A stretch of 64,000 bases of DNA from Calditrichia bacterium (GCA_050633245.1 JBOEGD010000020.1:141492-205491); one strand, 5' to 3'. Numbered from the stretch's first letter, positions 401 to 34,921 are shown. Translations and numbers: made by a program. The notes: generated from the letters alone by a model not told the origin.

Positions 401-865
401 ATGAGCGAAAACGTAAAAATAATTACCACGAACAAAAAAGCTCGTTTCGATTATCATATTTCCGAAACAATTGAAGCCGGTATTGTTCTCAAAGGCACGG
501 AAGTGAAAAGCATCCGAGCAGGTAAAGTAAATTTGCAGGATTCTTACGCGAGGATCATGAAGAATGAAGTGTGGTTAATTGGCATGCATGTGAATCTTTA
601 TGCCAATGAGGGATATGTGACCCACGATCCTGAAGCAAGCCGAAAGCTGCTGCTAAATCGCAACGAGATCGATAAGCTTGAACGCAAGGTGATGGAAAAA
701 GGTGTGACGCTTATTCCTACCAAGCTGTACTTTAAAAATGGTCGTGTAAAAGTTGCTATCGGGCTTGCCACAGGTAAAAGACAGTATGATAAGCGGCAGG
801 ATATTGCCAAACGCGATCGCGATCGCGAGATGAAACGAATTGAAAAACAGTACCGCGTAAAATAA
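401..865 (+). CDS. smpB: SsrA-binding protein SmpB
   Basis: [28 protein letters not shown] and GKRQYDKR motifs. Confidence 0.98.
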
Positions 866-895
866 TCTCCCATTCCACGTAATCCGGATATAATA

Positions 896-2164
896 ATGAA
901 CTTTTTTGATGAACAAACATGGCGTGGCTGCATCCTCGATTCTACCGAAGGCGCACGTGATGCCGTTAGCGGAAAACCTGTTGCCGGCTATATTGGCTTC
1001 GATCCCACGGCAGATAGTCTGCACGTTGGCTCACTTCTTCAGATCATGTCTTTAGCCCGTTTACAGCGCAGCGGGCATAAGGCCATTGCCCTTGTTGGCG
1101 GTGGAACCGGGCTTATTGGCGATCCTTCAGGTAAGAGCGAAGAGCGGAAGCTGCTCACAAAAGAACAGGTTCAGGCAAATGCCGATGCAATAAAAAATCA
1201 GCTCTCAAGATTTCTCGATTTCGACGGCGATAATCCAGCCCGGATGGTGAATAACCTGGAGTGGTTGGGCGAGATCAGTTTTGTCGATTTCCTTCGTGAT
1301 GTCGGAAAATACTTTACCGTGAATAATATGCTGGCAAAAGAATCTGTAAAGCGTCGTATCGACTCGGAGGATGGAATTTCATTCACCGAATTTAGCTACT
1401 CGCTGCTGCAGGCATATGATTTTTTGGTGCTGAACGATCGCTACGATTGTACGCTTCAAATGGGTGGAAGTGATCAGTGGGGAAATATTGTGTCCGGTTC
1501 GAACCTGATTCGTCGGATTCGTCAGAAAAAAGCGTACGGCATTGTCTCGCCGTTGGTAACGACTGCCAGCGGAACCAAATTTGGTAAAACGGAAGCCGGA
1601 ACGGTTTGGCTAGATGCCGCGCGCACGTCACCTTATCGCTTCTACCAATTTTTTGTAAATACGGACGATGCTGATACTATTCCCTATCTAAAATTCTTTA
1701 CCTGGCTAACGCAGGAAGAAATTGCCGAGCTGGAAACGTCAATTGCGGACAACCCGGGAAAACGTGAAGCTCAGCAGCGCCTTGCTACAGAGCTGACGCG
1801 CATTGTGCATGGTCAGGAAGGCGTAGACAAAGCGCAAAATGCCAGCAAGGTACTTTTTGGTGGCGCTATTGAAGGTTTGAAGGCAGATGATGTTGCGGAC
1901 ATCTTCCAGGACGTGCCCTCTATCAAAATCTCGCGCAGCGAATTTGAAGGCGAAGGCATGGCTCTGCCCGATCTAATGGTTGGATGTGGTGCTGTAGACT
2001 CGAAGGGCAACGCCAGACGACTATTGCAGCAGGGTGGTGTTTCGTTGAATAACAATAAGATTGACGATTTTAACCGTCGGGTTGTTTTGGAAGATTTTAT
2101 TGAGAATAGATATCTGGTTCTTCGGAAGGGTCGGAAAAACTATTTTCTTATCCAGGTTGGATAA
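896..2164 (+). CDS. tyrS: tyrosine--tRNA ligase
   Basis: YIGFDPTADSLHVG (HIGH-like), QMGGSDQWGNI, KFGKT (KMSKS-like), C-terminal S4 domain. Confidence 0.98.
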   Translation: MNFFDEQTWRGCILDSTEGARDAVSGKPVAGYIGFDPTADSLHVGSLLQIMSLARLQRSGHKAIALVGGGTGLIGDPSGKSEERKLLTKEQVQANADAIKNQLSRFLDFDGDNPARMVNNLEWLGEISFVDFLRDVGKYFTVNNMLAKESVKRRIDSEDGISFTEFSYSLLQAYDFLVLNDRYDCTLQMGGSDQWGNIVSGSNLIRRIRQKKAYGIVSPLVTTASGTKFGKTEAGTVWLDAARTSPYRFYQFFVNTDDADTIPYLKFFTWLTQEEIAELETSIADNPGKREAQQRLATELTRIVHGQEGVDKAQNASKVLFGGAIEGLKADDVADIFQDVPSIKISRSEFEGEGMALPDLMVGCGAVDSKGNARRLLQQGGVSLNNNKIDDFNRRVVLEDFIENRYLVLRKGRKNYFLIQVG

Positions 2165-2179
2165 AAAAAGAAAAAAATA

Positions 2180-2274
2180 GAGCAGTTTTCAATAAGACTG
2201 GAGCAGTTTTCAATAAGACTGGAGCAGTTTTCAATAAGACTGGAGCAGTTTTCAATAAGACTGGAGCAGTTTTC
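2180..2274. repeat. 21-bp tandem repeat GAGCAGTTTTCAATAAGACTG, about 4.5 copies
   Basis: Identical units start at 2180, 2201, 2222, 2243 and (partial) 2264. Confidence 0.95.
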
Positions 2275-2290
2275 AAAACTGCTCCAGTCT
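2258..2290. terminator. perfect 16-bp inverted repeat between convergent genes, likely terminator
   Basis: AGACTGGAGCAGTTTT-C-AAAACTGCTCCAGTCT between tyrS and the peptidase gene. Confidence 0.7.
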
Positions 2291-2304
2291 AGTCAGTCAA
2301 ATCC

Positions 2305-5300
2305 TTACTTCAGCAATACCATCTTGCGACTCTGCACAAAATCTCCTGCCTGAAGCTGATACAAATAAATTCCACTAGAAACCGCTTCACCTAGATTGTT
2401 GGTAGCATCCCAAACAATCTCGTGTGATCCGGCAGCCTGCTTGGTATTTACCAGCGTGCGTACTTCCTGTCCCAGCATATTGAATACAGTTACCCGGACA
2501 TTCGACGTTTCGCGAACATCGTAGCTGATTGTCGTCGTTGGGTTGAACGGATTCGGATAGTTTGCATTCAGTGCATATTCCTGAGGAACAGCAGTTGTGT
2601 TATCATCGCCGATACCGGTGGGAACTGCAAGCAGATATGATACTGCGTTTTCCAACAGCAACTTTGCGTCAGCCTGGTTGGAAAACTCCGCATAGTTTGC
2701 CGCGATGTATACGATTTGTGCATCATCTGGATTGGTGTCGTTGTCATAAATCGCAATACCGGCATTTCCCGGATTATTGCCCGGCTCATACAGAACATAT
2801 GCTCCGCCAACTTGATTTACTGCATCTTCGCTGGGCCAGTCGCTATAGTCGATACCAAAAGAACTCGGGAGCTGATTCGGTGTGGTTACCATCGGGTGAG
2901 TGCTCTGAGACGACAGCAGGTTAAATGGTCCTGCATTGTCTGCAAGCCAATCATTTGAATGAATGACGCCTGCAGCAAAACTTGGATAGCCCGGAGTATC
3001 CGCAGCGTCATAACCAACTTCACCACCCTCAACAAGCAGTTTATTAGAAGGATCACTGCTTACCCAGTTTTCCAGAGCCGCACGATAGGTGGCATCGGAA
3101 ACCGGATCGACATTAATACCGCTGGAGTGGATAATCAGATTGTAGCTATCCCAGGTTGCGGGATCAGTACTGGAAACACTCTCTACGGTTGATGTAAATC
3201 CAAGGTCGTTCAGGTTGTTGCTGATGAGATCGGCTGCAAGACCAAATGGTGACTTGGTCAGGTTTCGCTCGTATGTGCCTTTGTCAGACACAACACGTAA
3301 TGGCTGAGTGCTTGGATCATCATCGATGACAAGAATAAGACCTCGTGATGCTACGATTGTAAAATCGTGGCTTCCACTTGGCGGATCGACGGTCTGATTG
3401 CCATTGCTGCTGCCGTCAGTTGCAAGAATGCTGTAGGATATAACATCCCCTTCGCTGATCGAGCCGGAGCTGATCGGGAAATCTGCAGACCAGGTATCGC
3501 CGGAGCTATTGACAAGGGAAAATGTGCTCCCGGTTCCGCCGTTGATGCTATAGGATACTTCAGCACTGGCAACGCTCAGGTTGTCTGTGATTTCTGCGGA
3601 TACATTCGCCGGCCAGCTAACCAGAGCCTGGTCGCCAAGCGGAGCGTGAGTTACAACTGGTGCTTCAGCATCTGCGCCGGTAGTAAAAGAATAGAAATTA
3701 CCCGGTGCGCCGGCTGGAAGTGTTGATGAAAGTCCATTCGCATCTGAGGTGAAGATGTAGTAATTGTACGTCTCGGCAGAACCGGTGCCTGTGATGGAAG
3801 CTGTCCAGTCGTTGCCGCTTAGGTTTGTCATGTTGACTTCATTTGCAAATGTACCGTCGTTGCCCCAGAACAGCTTGGCTTCGTTAATTGCGCCGCCAGC
3901 TGCAATCGAGGCGTTTACTACATACGGACCGTTAACGTCTTCGGTGTCGGTTAGCGGAACGTGCTGAATCTGCGGAGTCGGAATGGTAATCTGATAACCG
4001 CGCTCAGTAAAACGTTGCTGCATTGCAGAGAGGTTTGCACCGCCAAAGAGGTTTACATCAGCCTGAATCATGGCTTGCGCCAGATCAGTCTGTCCGGCAC
4101 CAGAGTTGGTCATGGACAGGCCTTCAAGGAAGTTCTTGTCGCTTGCTTCGCGACCGATATCGTCCCAAATAGCCATCATTGCTGTTGCAATAATTTCACC
4201 ATCTGCGTGAACGCCGCCACCAAGTCCGCTCGGGTGAGTGCGGTTGGTATTCGTTACGCGACCGTTCCAGAATTCATTATGACCATCCCACTGGAATGTC
4301 CAGAAGTACTGCGGATCGGCCGGTGTCCAGAAGCCGGTGCTGCGCATCTTGGAGTCTGCCCAGTAGTCTGCAATTCCTTCCGAAAGGCCTTCATTTTGCG
4401 AAAGACCACCATTGGTAATCCAATCGTGAATTCCGTGTCCAAGCTCGTGCCAGATTACGTCGGGGTCTTCAGAGTCATCTACGCCACCCTCACCCCAAGC
4501 GATGGTACCATCGGAAAGATAGTGAGAGTTGTCTGCGCCACCAAGACCATGTGGATCGACGCGTGCGCCACCGGTATACTGATATGGCATAACAGTAAAG
4601 CCGAGTGTCTCATTAATGTAACGCATAGACTGATCGATGTGATAATATACGTTGGCAGCTTCAAAACCCTGCTCACTACGAGTAAAGCTCCAGTCGCTGG
4701 TGGACTGCTCATAAGTGCCGCCAAATGGAGCTTCCGTATCGCTGATAACAGCGTATGGACCATCCAAGCTAAACGTTCCATTATCTTCGGTAATATCAAG
4801 CAGTGTTACTGCTACACGCTCATTGTTTAATGAGGCATTGTCTGCATCATTGTTATCGACATAGTTGCCGCCATAAGTAGCGCGTGCGCGGGTCAGTGGA
4901 TCAGGATCAAATACCTGACCAGTACCGTCAACGCGCTTGTGGCCACCATTATAGCGAGCTTTGTCTTCTACGCGAAACATTTCGCCGGTAATAGCGTCAA
5001 CCATTACTTCCCAATCGCCAAACATCTTTTCGGCAGGAATAATGCTGACTCGGTGAGCAAGGCGAGTAACGCCTTTATTGTAATAAACCACTGTTTCCTG
5101 AATATCGCGGTTCAGTATGCCTTCGATGCTTAAATATTGTTTTGCCTGAGCCTGAGCAGCTTTTGCTGCAACAACCGGCGCTTTATTGGCAAGTTTTGCC
5201 AGTGGCTTATAGGTACTCATGTAAAAAACCACTTCATTGTTTTTGTTCAAGCTGACTACGATTGTAGACTTGTACACCTTATAACCGTCCAGCATTTGCT

Positions 5301-12596: not shown

Positions 12597-12995
12597 ATGT
12601 TTTTTATCAAGGCAGATACTACCACCCAAAGACTTAACATTACAATCCAGCAAATCGACGATGCAGAAGACTTAAAGTCTATTCTGTTTATTGTTAAGCG
12701 TGAAGTTATCAAGCTGAATCCGGGCTGGACGGCAGCACTTGATTTTCGCGGCATGGGCGCTTTGGAAGAAAAGCTCATGACCTACCTGAAAGACCTTCAA
12801 AGATTATTCCTGAACTACAGCGTTGGTCGAATTGTAACGCTTGTAGACAATGTTGTATTAAAGATGCAGCTGATTCTGATGGGCAAAGAATCCGGTGCTT
12901 ACGATATCTCTTCGCGCTTTTCATCCGAGAAGGAATGGAAAGCATTTCTCGCCTCACCCCCCGGCATAGACCGGCCTACCTCAGAGTTGTTTTAG
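12597..12995 (+). CDS. hypothetical protein, STAS/SpoIIAA-like fold suspected
   Basis: GGAGG before ATG 12597; pattern WTAALDFRGM...IVTLVD...LKMQL...F.SEKE. Confidence 0.65.
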   Translation: MFFIKADTTTQRLNITIQQIDDAEDLKSILFIVKREVIKLNPGWTAALDFRGMGALEEKLMTYLKDLQRLFLNYSVGRIVTLVDNVVLKMQLILMGKESGAYDISSRFSSEKEWKAFLASPPGIDRPTSELF

Positions 12996-13005
12996 ATGGA
13001 TTGCA

Positions 13006-13040
13006 GCCCCTCGAAGATGTCAGACTTCGAGGGGGTTTTT
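13006..13040 (+). terminator. rho-independent terminator (copy 1)
   Basis: CCCCTCGAAG-loop-CTTCGAGGGG followed by a T run. Confidence 0.85.
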
Positions 13041-13194
13041 CTCTAAACAATAGTTTTGAGTGTAGATGTGTTGCGAGATAATCGCATGAGCAAAGGCCAT
13101 GAAAACTTCACACTTCCTTGACTTGTCAAGAAGTGCAACCTTCCTCACCTCCCGGTATTAACCGGCCTACCCCAGCTGTTTTAGATGGATTGCA

Positions 13195-13228
13195 GCCCCT
13201 CGAAGGTGTCAGACTTCGAGGGGGTTTT
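13195..13228 (+). terminator. rho-independent terminator (copy 2)
   Basis: Same stem as copy 1, followed by a T run. Confidence 0.75.
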
Positions 13229-26344: not shown

Positions 26345-27649
<1,305 letters not shown>

Positions 27650-27774
27650 TCTTTCCGTAGGCTAAAAGAATGAGGGTATTTGTTAATCGCAGTTTCTTGC
27701 TCTTTCCTAATAGTTTTCCTGACCAGCCTTGGATGCAATCAAAGACTGAACTTCCTGCGATTTTTTGGATACGC

Positions 27775-27808
27775 AATAGTTCACACTTGTGCTAAAGTGT
27801 GAACTATT
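27775..27808. promoter_or_regulatory. putative tyrosine-recombinase binding/crossover site I (14-6-14 perfect inverted repeat)
   Basis: AATAGTTCACACTT-GTGCTA-AAGTGTGAACTATT. Confidence 0.7.
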
Positions 27809-27811
27809 ACT

Positions 27812-27840
27812 TTGCCTATCCCTATAAATTCTGCTATATT
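27812..27840 (+). promoter_or_regulatory. sigma70-type promoter of the recombinase gene
   Basis: TTGCCT-N17-TATATT with extended -10 TG. Confidence 0.65.
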
Positions 27841-27857
27841 CAAATCAGTATATGAAC

Positions 27858-27891
27858 AAAAGTTCACACTTTTATAGCAGAGTGCACCATG
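27858..27891. promoter_or_regulatory. putative recombinase site II (imperfect 14-6-14) overlapping the start codon
   Basis: AAAAGTTCACACTT (13/14 to site I left arm)-TTATAG-CAGAGTGCACCATG (9/14 to right arm). Confidence 0.55.
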
Positions 27892-28461
27892 TCTACCTAC
27901 CAGTTAAAGGCCTCGGCCTACCATTTAAAGCTCCCCGAAATTAAGAAACTGATTTTTGCGACCCGTTCGTTTCGGAACCGGTGTCTTCTAAAGACTCTCT
28001 TCTGGGCAGGCTTGCGTCGCGAAGAAGCAGCGCAGCTGGATATACGCGATATCGACTTTGAGCGAAAGCGTATTCAGGTGAGAGGGAAGGGGAATAAGAT
28101 TCGAATTGTCCCGATCATTGACGACGAATTTCTAAGCGACCTGCAACACTTGGTTGCTGGCCGAAACTCCGGACCGGTCTTTCAAAACCCTAGGAGCGAG
28201 CATTTGACAATTCGTATGATTAATAAGATTACTCGTCAGGTAGGGGAGCAGGCTAATATTACCAATCCAAACCCATCGTTGAAGCATATTAACCCACACC
28301 TGTTTCGGCACTCAATAGCACGCTATTTAAAAGGCAAAGGGTTTTCTGCAGAGTGGGTGCAAAACTTTCTTGGCCACTCTTCTTACAAAACAACCATGGA
28401 TATGTATGGAACCATTTCTCTTGATGAAATGCAAGATGAGGCAGTAAAGCGATTAGGGTAG
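27889..28461 (+). CDS. small tyrosine recombinase (phage integrase family, essentially catalytic domain only)
   Basis: Complete catalytic set: GLRREE (R), GKGNK (K), HLFRH (HxxR), LGH (H), DMY (Y); 190 aa. Confidence 0.93.
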   Translation: MSTYQLKASAYHLKLPEIKKLIFATRSFRNRCLLKTLFWAGLRREEAAQLDIRDIDFERKRIQVRGKGNKIRIVPIIDDEFLSDLQHLVAGRNSGPVFQNPRSEHLTIRMINKITRQVGEQANITNPNPSLKHINPHLFRHSIARYLKGKGFSAEWVQNFLGHSSYKTTMDMYGTISLDEMQDEAVKRLG

Positions 28462-28632
28462 GTTATTTATCTACAAATCGCGCGTGTAAATATGCATTTC
28501 CTAAGCACAGGTGGTAAAGAGCTGTTCTTATTCAAAAATGATTACTCAAAATTATCCTTGCTTTTTTATTCATTAAATATGTAGCGTTAATCACACCTCA
28601 TTCAATTTTACCTTATTATCTGGAGGAAGCTT

Positions 28633-30288
28633 ATGGCTTCTACTCTAAGGCATGTCATTGCTTGCGTATTGCTATGCTTGCTTTGTTTGCCGTCTCAGGC
28701 CGGATGGCCGACTGAGGCAGACTCAGCCATCTTTGTTGATTTTGGCCTTTTTCCTTACGTCTCGGTAGCTCCAGTTGATCAATCTGTTTTTGTCGTCTAT
28801 ATCTTTAACGGCCGTTTATTTGCAAAGAAATATGATCGCTACGGAGATTCACTTTGGGGAGGAAATCGTGCAACGCTTGGCGACACCACAGAAATGTTTG
28901 GGCGAGTGGTAGGTAATTTACCGAGACAGTGGGGAGCGGTTGTTCCGGATGACAACGGAGGGCTCTACGTGTGCTGGCAAGATTATCGACATTCGCAATA
29001 CAATGGATCAACTCCAATTACTAACGACATCTATATTCAGTATGTAGATTCAAATGGTCTTACAACGATGGGAGCTCATGGAAAGCGATTGAACACTCTT
29101 CAGGATGAATCTCATCTTCTTGGTGATATGAAGACAGACTACCATGGAGGGGTGTTTGTTGGTTTCTCCCGTGACTCTACTTCCTCAATGAGTGTTGTAA
29201 AACGAATTCAGTCAAACGGAACCATCCTCTGGAAAAAATATTTTAACGAAACATCCGCACGTATTGCTGCCACAAGCCCTCAGGGTGATGTATTTGTAAA
29301 TGTCATCGATGGTCTTCCTGGCCGACGCCAAAAACTTGACATTGGGGGAAATGCATTATGGCCAGATACGTTGAGTGGAAGAATACCTACTAGCCCTTCT
29401 TATCCACAAGGACGTGCGTTTGCGAATAACGACGGTGGTGTTTATGGTATTTCCAGAAATGTCTTTGAGGTTCGGTTTAATCATTTTTATTCCGATGGAA
29501 ACCCAATTTTTGGAGAAGATATTATCATTCCGACTACAAATATTCCCAGCTATTACGCTTCCGATAATGATGAGGGGTTTTTCTTTCAAGCGACAGCCCA
29601 TACAAAACCACTTCGTCGAATCCGCAAGAATGGATCGCTTGCCTGGGGTAATGATGTCTTTATTACTCAAGACTCGATGTGGTCTGGAATTAACGGTATT
29701 GAATCGGATCTGGAAGGAGGAATTATCGGCGTTGCTTCAACTGGAATATTTACAAACGGGTCTTTTATGCTTGCGCAACGTCTTGATAGTATCGGGCAAC
29801 ATCTCTGGCAACCCGATGGCGTTATTTTTCATAGTTCACCGCATCAGTTTGAAGGAGCTGCTTCCTCAATTGTTCGCATGGCGTCAGATGGACGTGGAGG
29901 GATTGTTGTTAGCTGGGTATTAAGCTTTCAAGGACTACGAATTTACATCAAACAAATTTCAAAAGATGGCATCATTGGCGATGCGATCACTGGAGTTAAC
30001 AGAGTAGAAGGGAGACTTCCGGAAGAGTTCAGTCTATTTCAGAATTTTCCTAATCCGTTTAATGCAATTACGCAAATTCAATATCAGTTAGAAGGTGCGG
30101 GGAAAGTCACATTGACGGTTTATTCGATTTTAGGTCAAAGGATTCGCACTTTGGTTGAAGCCAATCAACAAAAAGGAACCTATGATGTTTCATTCAATGC
30201 GTTAGGTTTACCCACAGGCATATATTTCTATCAGCTAAATGTAGATAATGTTGTTCGGGGTAATAAAAAGATGCTCATTTTAAACTGA
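28633..30288 (+). CDS. secreted beta-propeller-like protein with C-terminal FlgD-Ig/T9SS-type tail
   Basis: GGAGG Shine-Dalgarno; signal peptide; repeated DxxGG..V.W and QR.DS.G..LW units; QNFPNPFN...KKMLILN. Confidence 0.85.
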   Translation: MASTLRHVIACVLLCLLCLPSQAGWPTEADSAIFVDFGLFPYVSVAPVDQSVFVVYIFNGRLFAKKYDRYGDSLWGGNRATLGDTTEMFGRVVGNLPRQWGAVVPDDNGGLYVCWQDYRHSQYNGSTPITNDIYIQYVDSNGLTTMGAHGKRLNTLQDESHLLGDMKTDYHGGVFVGFSRDSTSSMSVVKRIQSNGTILWKKYFNETSARIAATSPQGDVFVNVIDGLPGRRQKLDIGGNALWPDTLSGRIPTSPSYPQGRAFANNDGGVYGISRNVFEVRFNHFYSDGNPIFGEDIIIPTTNIPSYYASDNDEGFFFQATAHTKPLRRIRKNGSLAWGNDVFITQDSMWSGINGIESDLEGGIIGVASTGIFTNGSFMLAQRLDSIGQHLWQPDGVIFHSSPHQFEGAASSIVRMASDGRGGIVVSWVLSFQGLRIYIKQISKDGIIGDAITGVNRVEGRLPEEFSLFQNFPNPFNAITQIQYQLEGAGKVTLTVYSILGQRIRTLVEANQQKGTYDVSFNALGLPTGIYFYQLNVDNVVRGNKKMLILN

Positions 30289-30304
30289 CAACCGGGGAGG
30301 TTTT

Positions 30305-33300
30305 ATGTTCAGTATTAAGAGGCGCTTTGTTCTGGTGTTACATGTTTTAATCTTTTTAGGGACAAATTCGCTGTTTTCCCAAGAAACAACATTCGAATGT
30401 ACTTTTTCACAGACTCTTACCTCTGAAGATTCCCTGGCAATGCTAGCTGGCGCACCGCTTTACCAGGATACGACATTGCGTGTAGCTTTATTCTTTGTAG
30501 AATTCGCCGATGCTGATTCAAATATTAATGCTCGAGGCAGCGTGGGATGGAGTGATATTGATACATCAATTGCAGTTCCTATGGAAAAAAAGTATCGTCG
30601 TTATCACTACTGGGACATGTTTTTTACAAAGGGAACTTATATTGACGCAAATCCAGCAACTCCACTAATCCACCCGGACCGAGATAGTCACCCAGGTTTA
30701 ACTTTAGCTACATACGGTTCAATGCGGGATTATTATCTCGAAAACAGCAACAATAATCTGGAGGTTTTACCAGCCGTTACTCATCCAAGTTTAACCGATT
30801 CAACATTAAGAAGTGGAATAATTAATCATACAAACTCGACGGATAGCAGTGTTATTTGGGTAAAGTTACCTGGTAGCTTTGCAGATTACAGTGATGGAAA
30901 AGACAATACAGTCATAATGGATGACGCGATTGAATTGGGAGACTCTTTATTCATCGATGGAATACTTGATGTCTCGACGAAAGACTCCAGCGCAATCGAT
31001 CGTGTACTCATATATGTTGCCGGAACAGCAACAGGTGGAAGAGCCTCAAATTTTGATGGTCGCTATTCGGTTTTACGAGAAAAATCGCGACCGGGGCCCG
31101 AGACAAGAGAATATCTAGAAGGCCCGGGAGGTTTTGCTCATGAATTTGGCCATCAGATTGGCCATATTGACTTAAATGATCAAGGTGATTTTGCGAAACC
31201 CGAAGGTGTAGGTTATTTTAGTCTAATGGGTGGAGGAACAGCAGGCGGTCGCACATTTCGTCCAGCTCATTTCGGTGCATGGGAAAAACTGCAAAACGGG
31301 TGGTTAGACTATGACTTCATAGAGTCAGACACCACAAATTATGTAATTCGAGCCTCCTCCGATACGACTCTTTTGACTCCCGCTAAAGCAGCAATTCTTT
31401 ATGGGGCAGATACACTTCCAGGCCCAGAAGATTGGGCTGGGGGTGAAAGAGAGTATTTTATATTAGAGAATCGTACTCCAATCGGCTTTGATGCAACTAT
31501 TGCGTTTGGCGATCAGAGTTTTGCGGGAGGAATGATAGCATGGCATTATCATTCGCCTACGAAGTTTGTCAATGGACATCCTATTCGCGTTATCGAAGCC
31601 GATATTACTGCTAATTTGCTCGAAGGAAATCTAGGAACAACGGATCAAACTAAGACAGATAGAGGAGCTGTCTCAGATTTTTTCCCAGGCACAAACAGTG
31701 TTACTGCGATAGATGATAATACGATACCTTCGTTTAACTTATTCTCAGGGGACTATTCACATTACCGGCTCTCGGGAATTAGTTATAATGCGACAACTCA
31801 GGAAGTAGAGATTGACTCTTTTCTAACCACTAACCTGGTTACAGAAATTACACAAAATACTACCTGGAATCAGAACACGACACTAACCAAAGAGTTGATT
31901 ATTAAAGATAATGCGACTTTAACCATAGAGGCAGGTGTTGTTGTTACAATTGATCCAGCAGTTGTCTCGAACTTACGTATTATCGTTGAAGAAGGCGGGG
32001 ATCTATCGTTAAATGGTACTTCCCAGAATCCGATTGTTTTTGAGGCGACCGCTGATACCAGTAATTCGATATGGCAAGGCATTAGTTTTGAGAAGAACAG
32101 CAGCTACGATCTGTCTCATCTGACAATAAGAAATGCAACAAAAGCGTTAAATTTTGTTGACGCACTTTCAAATAAAACAATTCGTGGCTTAAGAATCACT
32201 AATTGCGTATTTGCATTTACCCTTCCTGCTTCATCAAGTAATACACGACTCGTTAATCTGACGGTTGAAAATGTAGAAGATGGGGGCAATGTAAACGGGA
32301 GTAATATAGAGGTTGATTCATCTGAAATTGTCTTGTCCGCTTTATTTTCAGCTGCGATACCAATAACGATTTCAAACTCAATAATCGACTCTAGTGAAGT
32401 TAAGATTTCAGGCAATGCAGAAAATACTATTGATACCAATATTTTTCAAAAAAATTCTGTATTAACATTAGTAAAAAACGGCGATGGAACTATTAAAAAC
32501 AACAGATTTATTGACGGAAGTAATATAGGATTTAATACTTCTTTTACTACTGTTACGCCAGTAATAAAGAATAATGTTTTTTTCGGTAAAAATAAAAGCG
32601 GAAAGGCCATTGATAATTTTCAGACTGAAATCGAAGTTGTTAATAATACTTTCATCTATTATGAATATGGATTTTTTGCTAGATCAGACAATCCTGATTC
32701 TAAAGTAGAAAACAATATCTTCTATGAAAATGCCAATTCATTTGTAACGACCGGAGATATGTTTTTTAACCTCTTCTATAATGACATTGACCCTACAGGG
32801 CTTGATTCATCGAACATCTTTGCTGATCCACTACTTGTCGATCCGGTAAATGGTGATGTACACCTGATGTCCACATCTCCTGCCATCGATAGCGCAGATT
32901 TTAAGGACGCATTTTCAAATGAACCCGCACCAAATGGTGGACGCCTCAATATGGGGGCCTATGGTAATACCGCTGAAGCAACACTTTCATTTGATTTAAT
33001 TGTTCAAAACAATCTGACTGCTGATGCAACCTGGTCTGGCTCGGTGAATATTCTGGAGTCTGTTTCCACAAGCGGTAACAAATTGACCTTGTCGCCCGGC
33101 ACTCGTGTTCTCTTTGACGACGGTAAAACATTAACTGTTACTGCAACACTTGACGCCGATGGTAAAGCGAGTCTTCCTGTTGCTGATCCTATTCTTTTTA
33201 GCGGATATCGGGAAGCAGATGCAATGGGAGGAGTTTATCTTTATCCATCTTCATCTGATACAGTGACGTTGAACTTTAGTGAGTTTAAGAAGGGTAGCAC

Positions 33301-34921
33301 TGGGTTGTATATTTCCGAATTGGATGGAACACAACATCAGTTTGACAATCTTCTCTTTGAAAACAATACCACAGGATTCTACAGTAGCGAGTCTGACTTC
33401 AGTTTGGTTAACTCAATTCTTACCTCAAATGAAAAGGGTATGGTTGCTGACGGAGGCGATGTAACAATTACTGGAACGGACTTTACAAACAATTCTATTC
33501 AAGGACTGCATCTTTACTACGCAGATTTTGATGTAACCAATTCGACATTTGAATATAATGCGGGACGAGGCGTTTATTTTCAATATAGCAGCAACGGAGA
33601 CTTTACTGATAATACTGTTAGCTATAACGGGAGTGATCCTGGCGAGAGTACCTTGAAAGGTGGAGTCGTTTGTTATCAAAGCTCTCCTTTTTTGGAAGAC
33701 AATGAAATCACCTATAATGATGCCAACGGGATTCTATCACTCAGTTCATCCTATCCGACAATGACAGGAGACGGGTATAACCTGGTAGCGCAAAATGCCG
33801 GTAACTCAGGTACTTCAGCAGCAGAAATATTTGTAGAAGATATTTCTTTTCCAGTTCTTGATCGTGGCAATAATGATATTGCCGATACTACCGGTGGCTA
33901 TTTGATTTACGGAGATGAAGATGAACGTGAGTTCTCTCTCTATATTCGCTATAACTATTGGGGAGAGACAGACTCATCCTCTATTGCCGGTAAGCTGAAT
34001 CGGCCTGGTGGATTAATTTTTTATCCGTTTGACACAAGTAGCAATACAGGCAGTGGCCTTTTTAGCAAAGAAGGGAGCCTCGCTGAAGCCGACTCTACAG
34101 CAGACTTCTTTGAGCGGGGACTTGCAGCAGAACGCGAAGGCAAATACGCCGATGCAGTCGCACACTATGATTCGTTGATCACTTTGTATCCAGCATCTGC
34201 CATGTCAAAACCGGTTATGGACAGGCTCTATCATGTGAAACTCGCAAAGGGTGATACGCCACTCCAGCTCCAAACGTATTACAGCGCATTTATTCCTCAT
34301 ACTGACACAGCACTGGCCACTGTTGCCCAACGTTTAGCCATTCGCAGCCTCACCGCCGGTGGGGACTATCAGGATGCAATCAATGAACACACTACATGGA
34401 GTCTAAATACACATTTTGAGAGCGATTCTATTTACTCTCAGGTAGACATCCTCTCTAACCAGCTGCGCGCTACCGGAACGCCGATTGGAAAAATGAAGGC
34501 GGGTAAAGCAAAGACAAAACACTTGAAGAAGCAACAAGCGTCCTTCGAGGAAACTAGGATTAAAACTGATGCGCTGCTCAGTAGCTTAATACGAAAAGGC
34601 GGTGATGAGGAAGCAGCAGTAATACCGGAGAAATTTAGTCTGGGACAGAATTATCCAAATCCATTTAATCCGACGACAACGATTACCTTCCAGGCACCGA
34701 CTAAGGGCAACATTCAATTAGAAATTTTCAATGTTCTCGGTCAAAAAGTGAAGACGCTATTGAATTCCGATGTTGATGCAGGTGAATACAAACTACTCTG
34801 GGATAGTCGCAATGGAAGCGGAAACCGCGTTGCCAGTGGGCTCTATTTCTACAGAGCATATTTTACTGATGAATCAGGGAAACAAATTGTAAAATCAAAG
34901 AAGATGATTCTGTTAAGATAG
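30305..34921 (+). CDS. secreted M6 (immune inhibitor A-like) metalloprotease with right-handed beta-helix regions, TPR-like segment and FlgD-Ig/T9SS-type tail
   Basis: VEFAD, GSMRDYY.ENS, HEFGHQIGHIDL, FSLMG, AWEKLQNGW, EYFILENR; Asn-ladder repeats; QNYPNPFNP. Confidence 0.88.
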   Translation: MFSIKRRFVLVLHVLIFLGTNSLFSQETTFECTFSQTLTSEDSLAMLAGAPLYQDTTLRVALFFVEFADADSNINARGSVGWSDIDTSIAVPMEKKYRRYHYWDMFFTKGTYIDANPATPLIHPDRDSHPGLTLATYGSMRDYYLENSNNNLEVLPAVTHPSLTDSTLRSGIINHTNSTDSSVIWVKLPGSFADYSDGKDNTVIMDDAIELGDSLFIDGILDVSTKDSSAIDRVLIYVAGTATGGRASNFDGRYSVLREKSRPGPETREYLEGPGGFAHEFGHQIGHIDLNDQGDFAKPEGVGYFSLMGGGTAGGRTFRPAHFGAWEKLQNGWLDYDFIESDTTNYVIRASSDTTLLTPAKAAILYGADTLPGPEDWAGGEREYFILENRTPIGFDATIAFGDQSFAGGMIAWHYHSPTKFVNGHPIRVIEADITANLLEGNLGTTDQTKTDRGAVSDFFPGTNSVTAIDDNTIPSFNLFSGDYSHYRLSGISYNATTQEVEIDSFLTTNLVTEITQNTTWNQNTTLTKELIIKDNATLTIEAGVVVTIDPAVVSNLRIIVEEGGDLSLNGTSQNPIVFEATADTSNSIWQGISFEKNSSYDLSHLTIRNATKALNFVDALSNKTIRGLRITNCVFAFTLPASSSNTRLVNLTVENVEDGGNVNGSNIEVDSSEIVLSALFSAAIPITISNSIIDSSEVKISGNAENTIDTNIFQKNSVLTLVKNGDGTIKNNRFIDGSNIGFNTSFTTVTPVIKNNVFFGKNKSGKAIDNFQTEIEVVNNTFIYYEYGFFARSDNPDSKVENNIFYENANSFVTTGDMFFNLFYNDIDPTGLDSSNIFADPLLVDPVNGDVHLMSTSPAIDSADFKDAFSNEPAPNGGRLNMGAYGNTAEATLSFDLIVQNNLTADATWSGSVNILESVSTSGNKLTLSPGTRVLFDDGKTLTVTATLDADGKASLPVADPILFSGYREADAMGGVYLYPSSSDTVTLNFSEFKKGSTGLYISELDGTQHQFDNLLFENNTTGFYSSESDFSLVNSILTSNEKGMVADGGDVTITGTDFTNNSIQGLHLYYADFDVTNSTFEYNAGRGVYFQYSSNGDFTDNTVSYNGSDPGESTLKGGVVCYQSSPFLEDNEITYNDANGILSLSSSYPTMTGDGYNLVAQNAGNSGTSAAEIFVEDISFPVLDRGNNDIADTTGGYLIYGDEDEREFSLYIRYNYWGETDSSSIAGKLNRPGGLIFYPFDTSSNTGSGLFSKEGSLAEADSTADFFERGLAAEREGKYADAVAHYDSLITLYPASAMSKPVMDRLYHVKLAKGDTPLQLQTYYSAFIPHTDTALATVAQRLAIRSLTAGGDYQDAINEHTTWSLNTHFESDSIYSQVDILSNQLRATGTPIGKMKAGKAKTKHLKKQQASFEETRIKTDALLSSLIRKGGDEEAAVIPEKFSLGQNYPNPFNPTTTITFQAPTKGNIQLEIFNVLGQKVKTLLNSDVDAGEYKLLWDSRNGSGNRVASGLYFYRAYFTDESGKQIVKSKKMILLR

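Follow-up and report, generated by a model that had tools for sequence, protein, structure and literature searches.

Cre, a tyrosine recombinase of 343 amino acids (aa) with a core-binding domain, has as its site the 13-8-13 sequence loxP, which adjoins the cre gene; TnpI is a two-domain enzyme of ~284 aa linked to a Tn3-family transposase, and recombinases of the FimB/FimE type are ~200 aa long and lack a full core-binding domain. Where the survey of Smyshlyaev et al. (2021; PMC8138268) treats domain architecture, tyrosine recombinases are held to need a core-binding domain that clamps DNA jointly with the catalytic domain, and the 'simple' class is described as a core-binding plus a catalytic domain. 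The site of TnpI, the IRS, is described in the relevant part of PMC2847244 as a 116-bp sequence with two inverted core motifs and two accessory motifs in direct orientation, a 9-bp sequence being common to them. Among the Xer enzymes, XerS/difSL and XerH/difH are presented in the corresponding section of PMC5357621 as single genetic modules in which the recombinase gene stands immediately beside its site, and some archaea carry xerA and dif as one module in the same way. Here we compare with these systems a locus in a stretch of 64,000 nt from a Calditrichia bacterium (GCA_050633245.1, JBOEGD010000020.1:141492–205491; hereafter the window, with positions counted from its first letter), where a gene for a 190-aa tyrosine recombinase follows a perfect inverted repeat that we call site I.

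Gene and site are very probably a genuine recombinase and its cognate site, forming one module, and site I is probably the crossover site. As an overall explanation we favour a self-contained site-specific recombination module of the resolution type, to which we give roughly even chances.

A catalytic domain without a core-binding domain

The recombinase gene (P0001) occupies 27889–28461 on the + strand, with its ATG at 27889–27891. The nearest upstream in-frame stop, a TGA at 27853–27855, makes a 5' extension of the open reading frame impossible. Our initial annotation, made from the DNA alone, had described a 190-aa enzyme with an intact R-K-HxxR-H-Y set and no N-terminal core-binding domain. 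The alignments to XerA and among relatives agree with the first part of this description, and the second is borne out by the Pfam, PDB profile and fold searches, all of which place the protein on the C-terminal domain of XerA. PF00589 is the sole Pfam match (96.4 bits against a gathering score of 27.1), pairing residues 17–173 with positions 7–165 of the 172-position profile, and ~12 residues precede the catalytic domain, with no N-terminal core-binding domain. The best NCBIfam model is that of XerA (NF040815), aligned at its positions 96–261 of 263, which correspond to the C-terminal domain, and in the PDB profile search the protein aligns to residues 104–275 of 292 of XerA 4a8e (104.6 bits). 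An AF2 model (pLDDT 86.2, pTM 0.84) has this same 4a8e as its best Foldseek match (E = 1.4e-10, TM 0.74 by query) and also superposes on Brujita integrase; XerA, XerH, XerD, Brujita Int, IntI4, lambda Int and Cre are all returned with a Foldseek probability of 1.00.

Through the XerA alignment, the catalytic set was placed at R43, K70, H137, R140, H163 and Y173. In 32 aligned relatives 46 columns are invariant, among them those of R43, K70, R140, H163 and Y173; H137 is conserved in at least 90%, and all six residues are invariant across the proteins of the six loci considered below. The protein is a member of the tyrosine recombinase superfamily and consists of the catalytic domain alone; it lacks the core-binding domain by which the 'simple' class is described. 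The curated subfamily models score well below their cut-offs, as seen for XerA (NF040815, 126.5 against 220), XerC (TIGR02224, 94.3 against 335.15), XerD (TIGR02225, 86.5 against 329.6), XerS (NF003462, 59.3 against 267) and the integron integrases (TIGR02249, 62 against 265; NF011946, 40.6 against 435). The Fim-type invertase models NF007370 and NF007371 give 40.5 against 221 and 33.8 against 222, respectively. A likeness to FimB/FimE, which the annotation had drawn, is therefore one of size (profile lengths 198–200) with weak similarity in sequence, the catalytic domain being nearer to XerA, XerC and XerD by the NCBIfam scores.

A word-indexed protein search returned 1024 relatives at E <= 1e-3, counted as clusters at 90% identity. 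The best 120 of these are 61–97% identical and 181–242 aa long, and none has an N-terminal core-binding domain; the annotation's own reservation, that the frame might be what is left of a longer integrase, is answered by the 112 of these 120 that measure 186–198 aa. Among proteins of 334–2000 aa there were 87 matches, a single one of them close (P0122, 64%), and this is a truncated catalytic domain with a C-terminal Lcl_C fusion, not an N-terminal addition. The others are at most 37% identical and are ordinary two-domain Xer-like enzymes, and no relative above 37% identity bears a core-binding domain. A truncated remnant or pseudogene is ruled out by the family lengths together with this search of long proteins.

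When representatives at 50% identity were searched exhaustively, 56 clusters reached E <= 1e-30, and 43 of them are 170–260 aa long and are matched from near their N-terminus. The tight family is therefore nested within a wider group of short recombinases; the module marks a large, unnamed clade of ~170–260-aa enzymes in metagenomes, and the ESM Atlas holds further short clusters of 179–200 aa. Most of the family resides on metagenome contigs. Source names among the relatives, which are unconfirmed, include Calditrichia (97% identical), Pacebacteria and a Hodarchaeota metagenome-assembled genome. Cultured phages and plasmids yielded no close relatives, all protein matches being below 60% identity (at most 37% among the matches listed), and the 706-bp module had no match at the DNA level; a match on pBM19 proved to be an ordinary 284-aa enzyme. 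PADLOC found no defence-system match for the module. A literature search, outside which lay the supplementary datasets of PMC8138268, found no study of the catalytic-domain-only clade, and the module appears to be unstudied. At the very start of the gene, within codons 1–14, a 14-nt direct repeat (27896–27909 and 27917–27930, 93% identical, spacing 21) falls in the part that codes for the conserved N-terminal peptide.

The core site and the stretch between it and the gene

Site I, to which no strand is assigned, spans 27775–27808 and comprises a left arm at 27775–27788 (AATAGTTCACACTT), the spacer GTGCTA at 27789–27794 and a right arm at 27795–27808 (AAGTGTGAACTATT). Inverted-repeat analysis of a 401-nt stretch shows the two 14-nt arms to be 100% complementary, and the coordinates, spacer and perfect 14-6-14 symmetry claimed earlier for this site were all verified on the sequence. 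Perfect hairpin-type inverted repeats (arms of at least 11 nt, loops of 3–10 nt) number four in the 64 kb, site I among them; shuffling the sequence 20 times gave, for a 6-nt loop, longest perfect arms of 6 to 12 nt, never the 14 nt of site I. A repeat search with the maximum distance set to 12 did not return site I, which we ascribe to the way that parameter is defined, since both analyses above find the repeat. The arm-core 11-mer AGTTCACACTT has three exact copies in the window, all within 27778–27871. When up to one mismatch is allowed there are four matches against a shuffle mean of 1.06, and at least four were reached in two of 100 shuffles.

The other near-match to the arm (13105–13115, ACTTCACACTT, 10/11) lies within chance expectation. 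Its placement is curious, between the two copies (12952–13039 and 13143–13228) of a composite direct repeat made up of 33 nt at 85% and 55 nt at 96% identity with a spacing of ~190; both copies finish in a GC-rich hairpin with a T-run.

Homologous loci were sought in species-representative genomes (185,579 species), where 18 stretches matched and nine loci were confirmed: five of full length (L001–L005), three with the 3' end of the gene only (L006, L007 and L009), and one, a relative at 47% identity, truncated by the end of its contig. Together with the window, the five full-length loci make up the six used in the site counts, the start of L002 having been corrected to 3989. Their sources are Andersenbacteria (L001), an uncultured bacterium (L002), Omnitrophota (L004) and Patescibacteria (L005), with L003 known from a protein named Pacebacteria. 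In all six, the sequence T[TG]CACA[CG]TT-N6-AA[GC]TGTG[AC]A is centred 97.5–106.5 bp upstream of the start (98.5 in L002), the inner 9 nt of each arm being the portion of site I that is conserved family-wide. Site models were built from the six loci themselves and a leave-one-out procedure was used; under it, the best full site of the whole source fell at the expected place in five of the six and ranked second in L002. A self-trained scan of 121 kb (the window and the nine loci) with a 6-nt spacer gave just eight matches, namely the six upstream sites, the block called site II in the window (see below) and a second site, site B, in L002. The window, L003 and L001 each have two strong arms.

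The flanking genes are unrelated across all loci, and the spacers differ in all six (GTGCTA, GTATAG, TAGGTA, GTATAA, GTGGAG and CCGTCA). Such differences would be expected were each site to recombine with a copy of itself, and they make the GTGCTA spacer, for which the annotation had proposed to search, no guide to relatives. Homologues lacking the sites, named there as one of the refuting findings, were not encountered: a site of the same kind stands upstream of the gene in 6/6. The further check proposed there, whether homologues keep the same pair of sites beside different cargo, came out positive for the core site and its unrelated neighbours; site II is represented by half-sites only.

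An RNA element, or a terminator of purA, was also considered at site I and rejected: there is no T-run, the repeat accompanies the recombinase gene regardless of the upstream neighbour, and the arms keep their sequence and not just their ability to pair, which argues for a protein site rather than an RNA hairpin. The hairpin predicted there is stable (-25.9 kcal/mol, z = -9.2), and Rfam gave nothing at or above its gathering score, the sole match being mir-1255 (20.2 bits against 63, E = 0.42).

Between site I and the gene lies a sigma-70-type promoter-like site on the + strand (27812–27840), with a -35 element TTGCCT at 27812–27817, a 17-nt spacer and a -10 element TATATT at 27835–27840 preceded by TG. 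The promoter scan found this sequence as first claimed, with 9 of 12 consensus positions matched. Promoter-like matches in 27500–28750 number two against 2.4 expected, i.e. not above chance. On the + strand, such a match starts +20.5 to +25.5 from the centre of site I in the window, L003 and L005; at the equivalent place the scan found none in L001 or L002, and L004 has matches at other offsets only. By eye, a TTG-containing hexamer can be seen at that place in L001, L002 and L004.

Site II had been put forward as a second 14-6-14 site covering the ATG. The block itself (27858–27891), its start 83 bp after that of site I and its overlap with the ATG all stand. It is 71% identical to site I over 34 nt, the left arm being the exact third copy of AGTTCACACTT and the right arm matching at 8 of 14 positions, and we read it as two accessory half-sites centred +74.5 and +91.5 from the centre of site I, not as a second full site. 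The first, in left-arm orientation on the + strand (27861–27871), lies in the presumed 5' leader and has a leave-one-out score of 14.2 bits (P = 0.0017); the second, in right-arm orientation on the same strand (27878–27888, CAGAGTGCACC), is a weak match (3.7) that abuts the start codon. From site I through the ATG (27775–27891) the arrangement spans 117 bp.

In the other loci, too, half-site-like motifs occupy the stretch between the -10 region and the start codon, at shared offsets of about +61, +74 and +91. Right-arm half-sites at +60.5 to +63.5 score 9.5 bits in L003, 9.0 in L004, 7.5 in L005 and 2.4 in L001; left-arm half-sites at +71.5 to +74.5 occur in L001 (8.2 bits) and L004 (5.1) as well as in the window; and right-arm half-sites at exactly +91.5 are shared by the window with L003 (6.3) and L005 (5.5). 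For the best half-site up to 62 nt upstream of the start, P values across the six loci are 0.0017, 0.009, 0.014, 0.030, 0.072 and 0.42. Three offset bins are each common to at least three of the six loci, and 0/2000 random draws from unrelated sequence reached three such bins. With these motifs where they are, autoregulation of the gene seems to us somewhat the better bet. A further inverted pair that the annotation had pointed out, CTGCTATA/TATAGCAG, does exist (9 nt, 27830–27838 and 27873–27881); we give it no weight because the 401 nt contain 11 inverted pairs of 8 nt or more, this one included, and because no counterpart was found in the homologous loci.

Proposed action of the module and its settings

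In the explanation that we favour, two protomers would bind the arms of site I, with Y173 cutting the DNA where the 6-nt spacer meets the arms, and strand exchange would take a second site with an identical spacer. Further protomers on the half-sites of the leader and start codon would repress the module's own promoter, and they may also aid synapsis, biasing the reaction toward direct-repeat sites as DR1 and DR2 do for TnpI at the Tn4430 IRS. The 64-kb window contains no second site with the spacer GTGCTA or TAGCAC, so the only partners open to the copy described here would be a sister copy and incoming DNA that bears a matching site. Given that spacers differ and that five of the six loci have a single site, the partner is most simply another copy on a sister or multimeric replicon. 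The module would ride on mobile DNA, and the window copy would then be stranded, intact and solitary. Resolution of multimers or cointegrates of such carrier DNA, or its circularization, along the lines of TnpI/IRS, Cre/loxP or XerS/difSL, is the role that we consider likeliest, though we put it forward tentatively, at somewhat less than even chances.

A mobile carrier is proposed because of the unrelated flanks, the gene remnants and the neighbours of three of the loci. The L001 module comes directly after genes for a ParB-like DNA methyltransferase and a terminase large subunit (793–3803), and therefore lies in a phage region; in L004 an rve transposase gene stands 23 bp downstream; and in L005 the recombinase gene is interrupted near its 3' end by an IS4-type transposase gene (DUF4372 + DDE_Tnp_1; 4055–5227, - strand), and its product stops after MDMYGTIG, without the C-terminal helix. 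L002 is flanked by genes for an ABC binding protein and a PilZ-PAS-GAF protein. In L003, genes for a ThsB-like TIR protein and a caspase-like protease (2428–3874) are immediately upstream and a TraG-D_C fragment is downstream, which suggests a defence island. Beyond the module in L001, a gene at 4823–5950 matches the candidate defence family PDC-S11. The three 3' remnants comprise residues ~100–182 in L006 (KSB1; 3918–4171), ~144–187 in L007 (Saccharibacteria; 4001–4132) and ~143–180 in L009 (3816–4102), and stand in ordinary chromosomal neighbourhoods with genes for peptidase S13, subtilase and amidase. To judge from these sequences, the recombinase gene decays where it stands in some genomes. 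No conserved right end of a mobile unit emerged, nothing shared being seen downstream of the stop codons.

The locus has features in common with each of the systems introduced above. XerA (Pyrococcus abyssi 4a8e, Thermoplasma 5hxy) has the closest catalytic domain by both sequence and fold, with the same catalytic residues, and a homodimer-type site with inverted arms; it differs in having an N-terminal core-binding domain, the match beginning at XerA residue 104, and the window locus lies away from a skew switch, in a family of sporadic distribution that includes gene remnants. In layout, the nearest parallel is the IRS of Tn4430, where an inverted core with accessory motifs on one side fills 116 bp, as set out in that part of PMC2847244, against 117 bp here. 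There is no Tn3-type linkage (the window has no transposase gene, and the genes in L004 and L005 are of the rve and DDE_Tnp_1 types), and the accessory half-sites are not oriented alike from locus to locus. XerS and XerH share the placing of the gene immediately beside its site, and differ in size (354–362 aa), in their core-binding domains, in acting at the chromosome terminus and in their dependence on FtsK. Cre/loxP likewise pairs one enzyme with one symmetric site and an asymmetric spacer, and the phage setting of L001 adds to the likeness; Cre is only a distant fold match (E ~1e-4). Unlike the FimB/FimE systems, the window has no invertible segment with equal-spacer sites, a feature encountered only in L002.

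Within this company the family stands out in that it has dropped the core-binding domain yet keeps its catalytic residues strongly conserved among relatives from several phyla, each gene being paired with an identifiable DNA target. This raises the question of whether a catalytic domain alone can recognize, synapse and exchange DNA, with cooperative half-site binding perhaps replacing the clamp. If active, a 570-bp gene and a ~30-bp site would be an unusually small orthogonal recombination tool. Bolder, and in our view rather unlikely, is the proposal of a new class of minimal autonomous systems, in which the 190-aa catalytic domain would bind, synapse and recombine its own 9-6-9 site unaided by a core-binding domain or a partner protein, would be kept in check by its own half-sites, and would move between phyla as a cassette of ~0.7–0.9 kb. 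The module is known from candidate phyla radiation bacteria, Omnitrophota, Calditrichia and KSB1, and from Asgard archaea by unconfirmed source names. Were the proposal true, the module would rank as the smallest of self-contained tyrosine recombinase systems; it would offer a natural test of the purpose of the core-binding domain and be a compact candidate for genome engineering.

Several observations weigh against the favoured explanation. A lone catalytic domain would have to bind and synapse DNA unaided, and the window copy is on no recognizable mobile element: among the large open reading frames of the window, Pfam detected neither a transposase nor a phage or conjugation gene, nor any recombinase besides this one. 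Readable loci number only six, and in three of them one arm of the core site is weak (left arm 3.2 in L004, right arm 3.9 in L005, left arm -0.8 in L002). A promoter was scored at the equivalent place in just 3/6, the right half of site II falls as low as the 3.7 given above, and the leave-one-out scan detected no accessory half-site in L002; moreover, the null behind the offset bins ignores the common descent of the six upstream regions. Finally, L002 has an inverted second site, which fits inversion and not resolution.

Competing explanations and the surroundings of the window locus

It is from L002 that the main rival draws most of its force. There, a second full site (4745–4772) lies 163 bp after the stop codon, inverted with respect to the one at 3877–3904, and the spacers TGACGG and CCGTCA are exact reverse complements; the two form an inverted repeat of 30 nt that is 93% complementary, with 828 nt between its arms. 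Promoter and recombinase gene are thus bracketed by inverted sites just upstream of the PilZ-PAS-GAF gene, and the arrangement looks like a putative self-inverting gene cassette. By extension, a DNA inversion switch would flip the segment between site I and an inverted partner and so switch read-through into a neighbour. In the window these would be the genes for two surface or secreted proteins, cargo of the type IX secretion system (T9SS), which follow the recombinase gene with no terminator-like site found by scanning in between. Inverted pairs, however, are confined to one of the six loci, and neither the window nor the fetched stretches of L001, L003, L004 and L005 (up to ~4 kb on each side) contain another site of equal spacer, direct or inverted. 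Recombination of site I with site II is not expected, because their spacers differ; the annotation's argument on this point against a simple inversion between the two was verified (GTGCTA against TTATAG). We regard an inversion switch as improbable, and the remaining explanations fit less well.

A second rival makes the enzyme the integrase of an island now part of the chromosome, with the T9SS genes (28633–34921) as cargo and site I as an attL/attR junction. The gene adjoins its own site, as int does att, the GC content of those genes is 0.41–0.43 against 0.45 for the window, and the weak arm in 3/6 loci is what a hybrid junction might look like. Site I in the window is, on the other hand, a perfect 14-nt palindrome, unlikely at a junction of element and target; the window holds no second GTGCTA junction with even one arm-like flank and no tRNA gene, and the spacer is not conserved between loci. 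We find this origin more doubtful still. Chromosome dimer resolution by a single-recombinase Xer/dif module, such as XerS/difSL, XerH/difH or some XerA/dif pairs, is lower again in our estimation. XerA is both the best curated match and the best solved structure, the known systems place site beside gene (PMC5357621, in the passage on these modules), and arms of ~11 bp around a 6-bp spacer are of the right form; yet every Xer-family HMM score is far under its cut-off, phage and transposase genes are found among the flanks, and the confirmed loci across the 185,579 species are only the nine counted above. Nor does the GC skew switch at the locus: within the 64-kb window it stays positive before and after 27.8 kb, and the cumulative skew rises through the locus. 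Least probable of all, and very unlikely in our view, is a domesticated DNA-binding regulator that keeps the recombinase fold and no longer recombines, as with MrpR/YopR of SPbeta. MrpR and YopR are among the distant fold matches, and the motifs here overlap the leader and the start codon. MrpR, a repressor with a tyrosine recombinase fold, retains three of seven catalytic residues according to the part of PMC10516654 that deals with them, whereas here R43, K70, R140, H163 and Y173 are kept in 32/32 and H137 in at least 90%. Retention of these residues across several phyla implies selection for catalysis, and the 6-nt spacer gives site I the geometry of a crossover site.

The self-contained recombination module thus preferred sits in an otherwise ordinary, housekeeping stretch of chromosome, with smpB, tyrS, gidB, cinA, secDF and purA upstream and the two T9SS cargo genes downstream. 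One of the latter, with a GC content of 0.43, encodes a protein of 551 aa; the other, at 0.41, encodes one of 1538 aa that combines beta-helix repeats with an M6-like protease domain. The 171-nt spacer preceding them has a GC content of 0.32.

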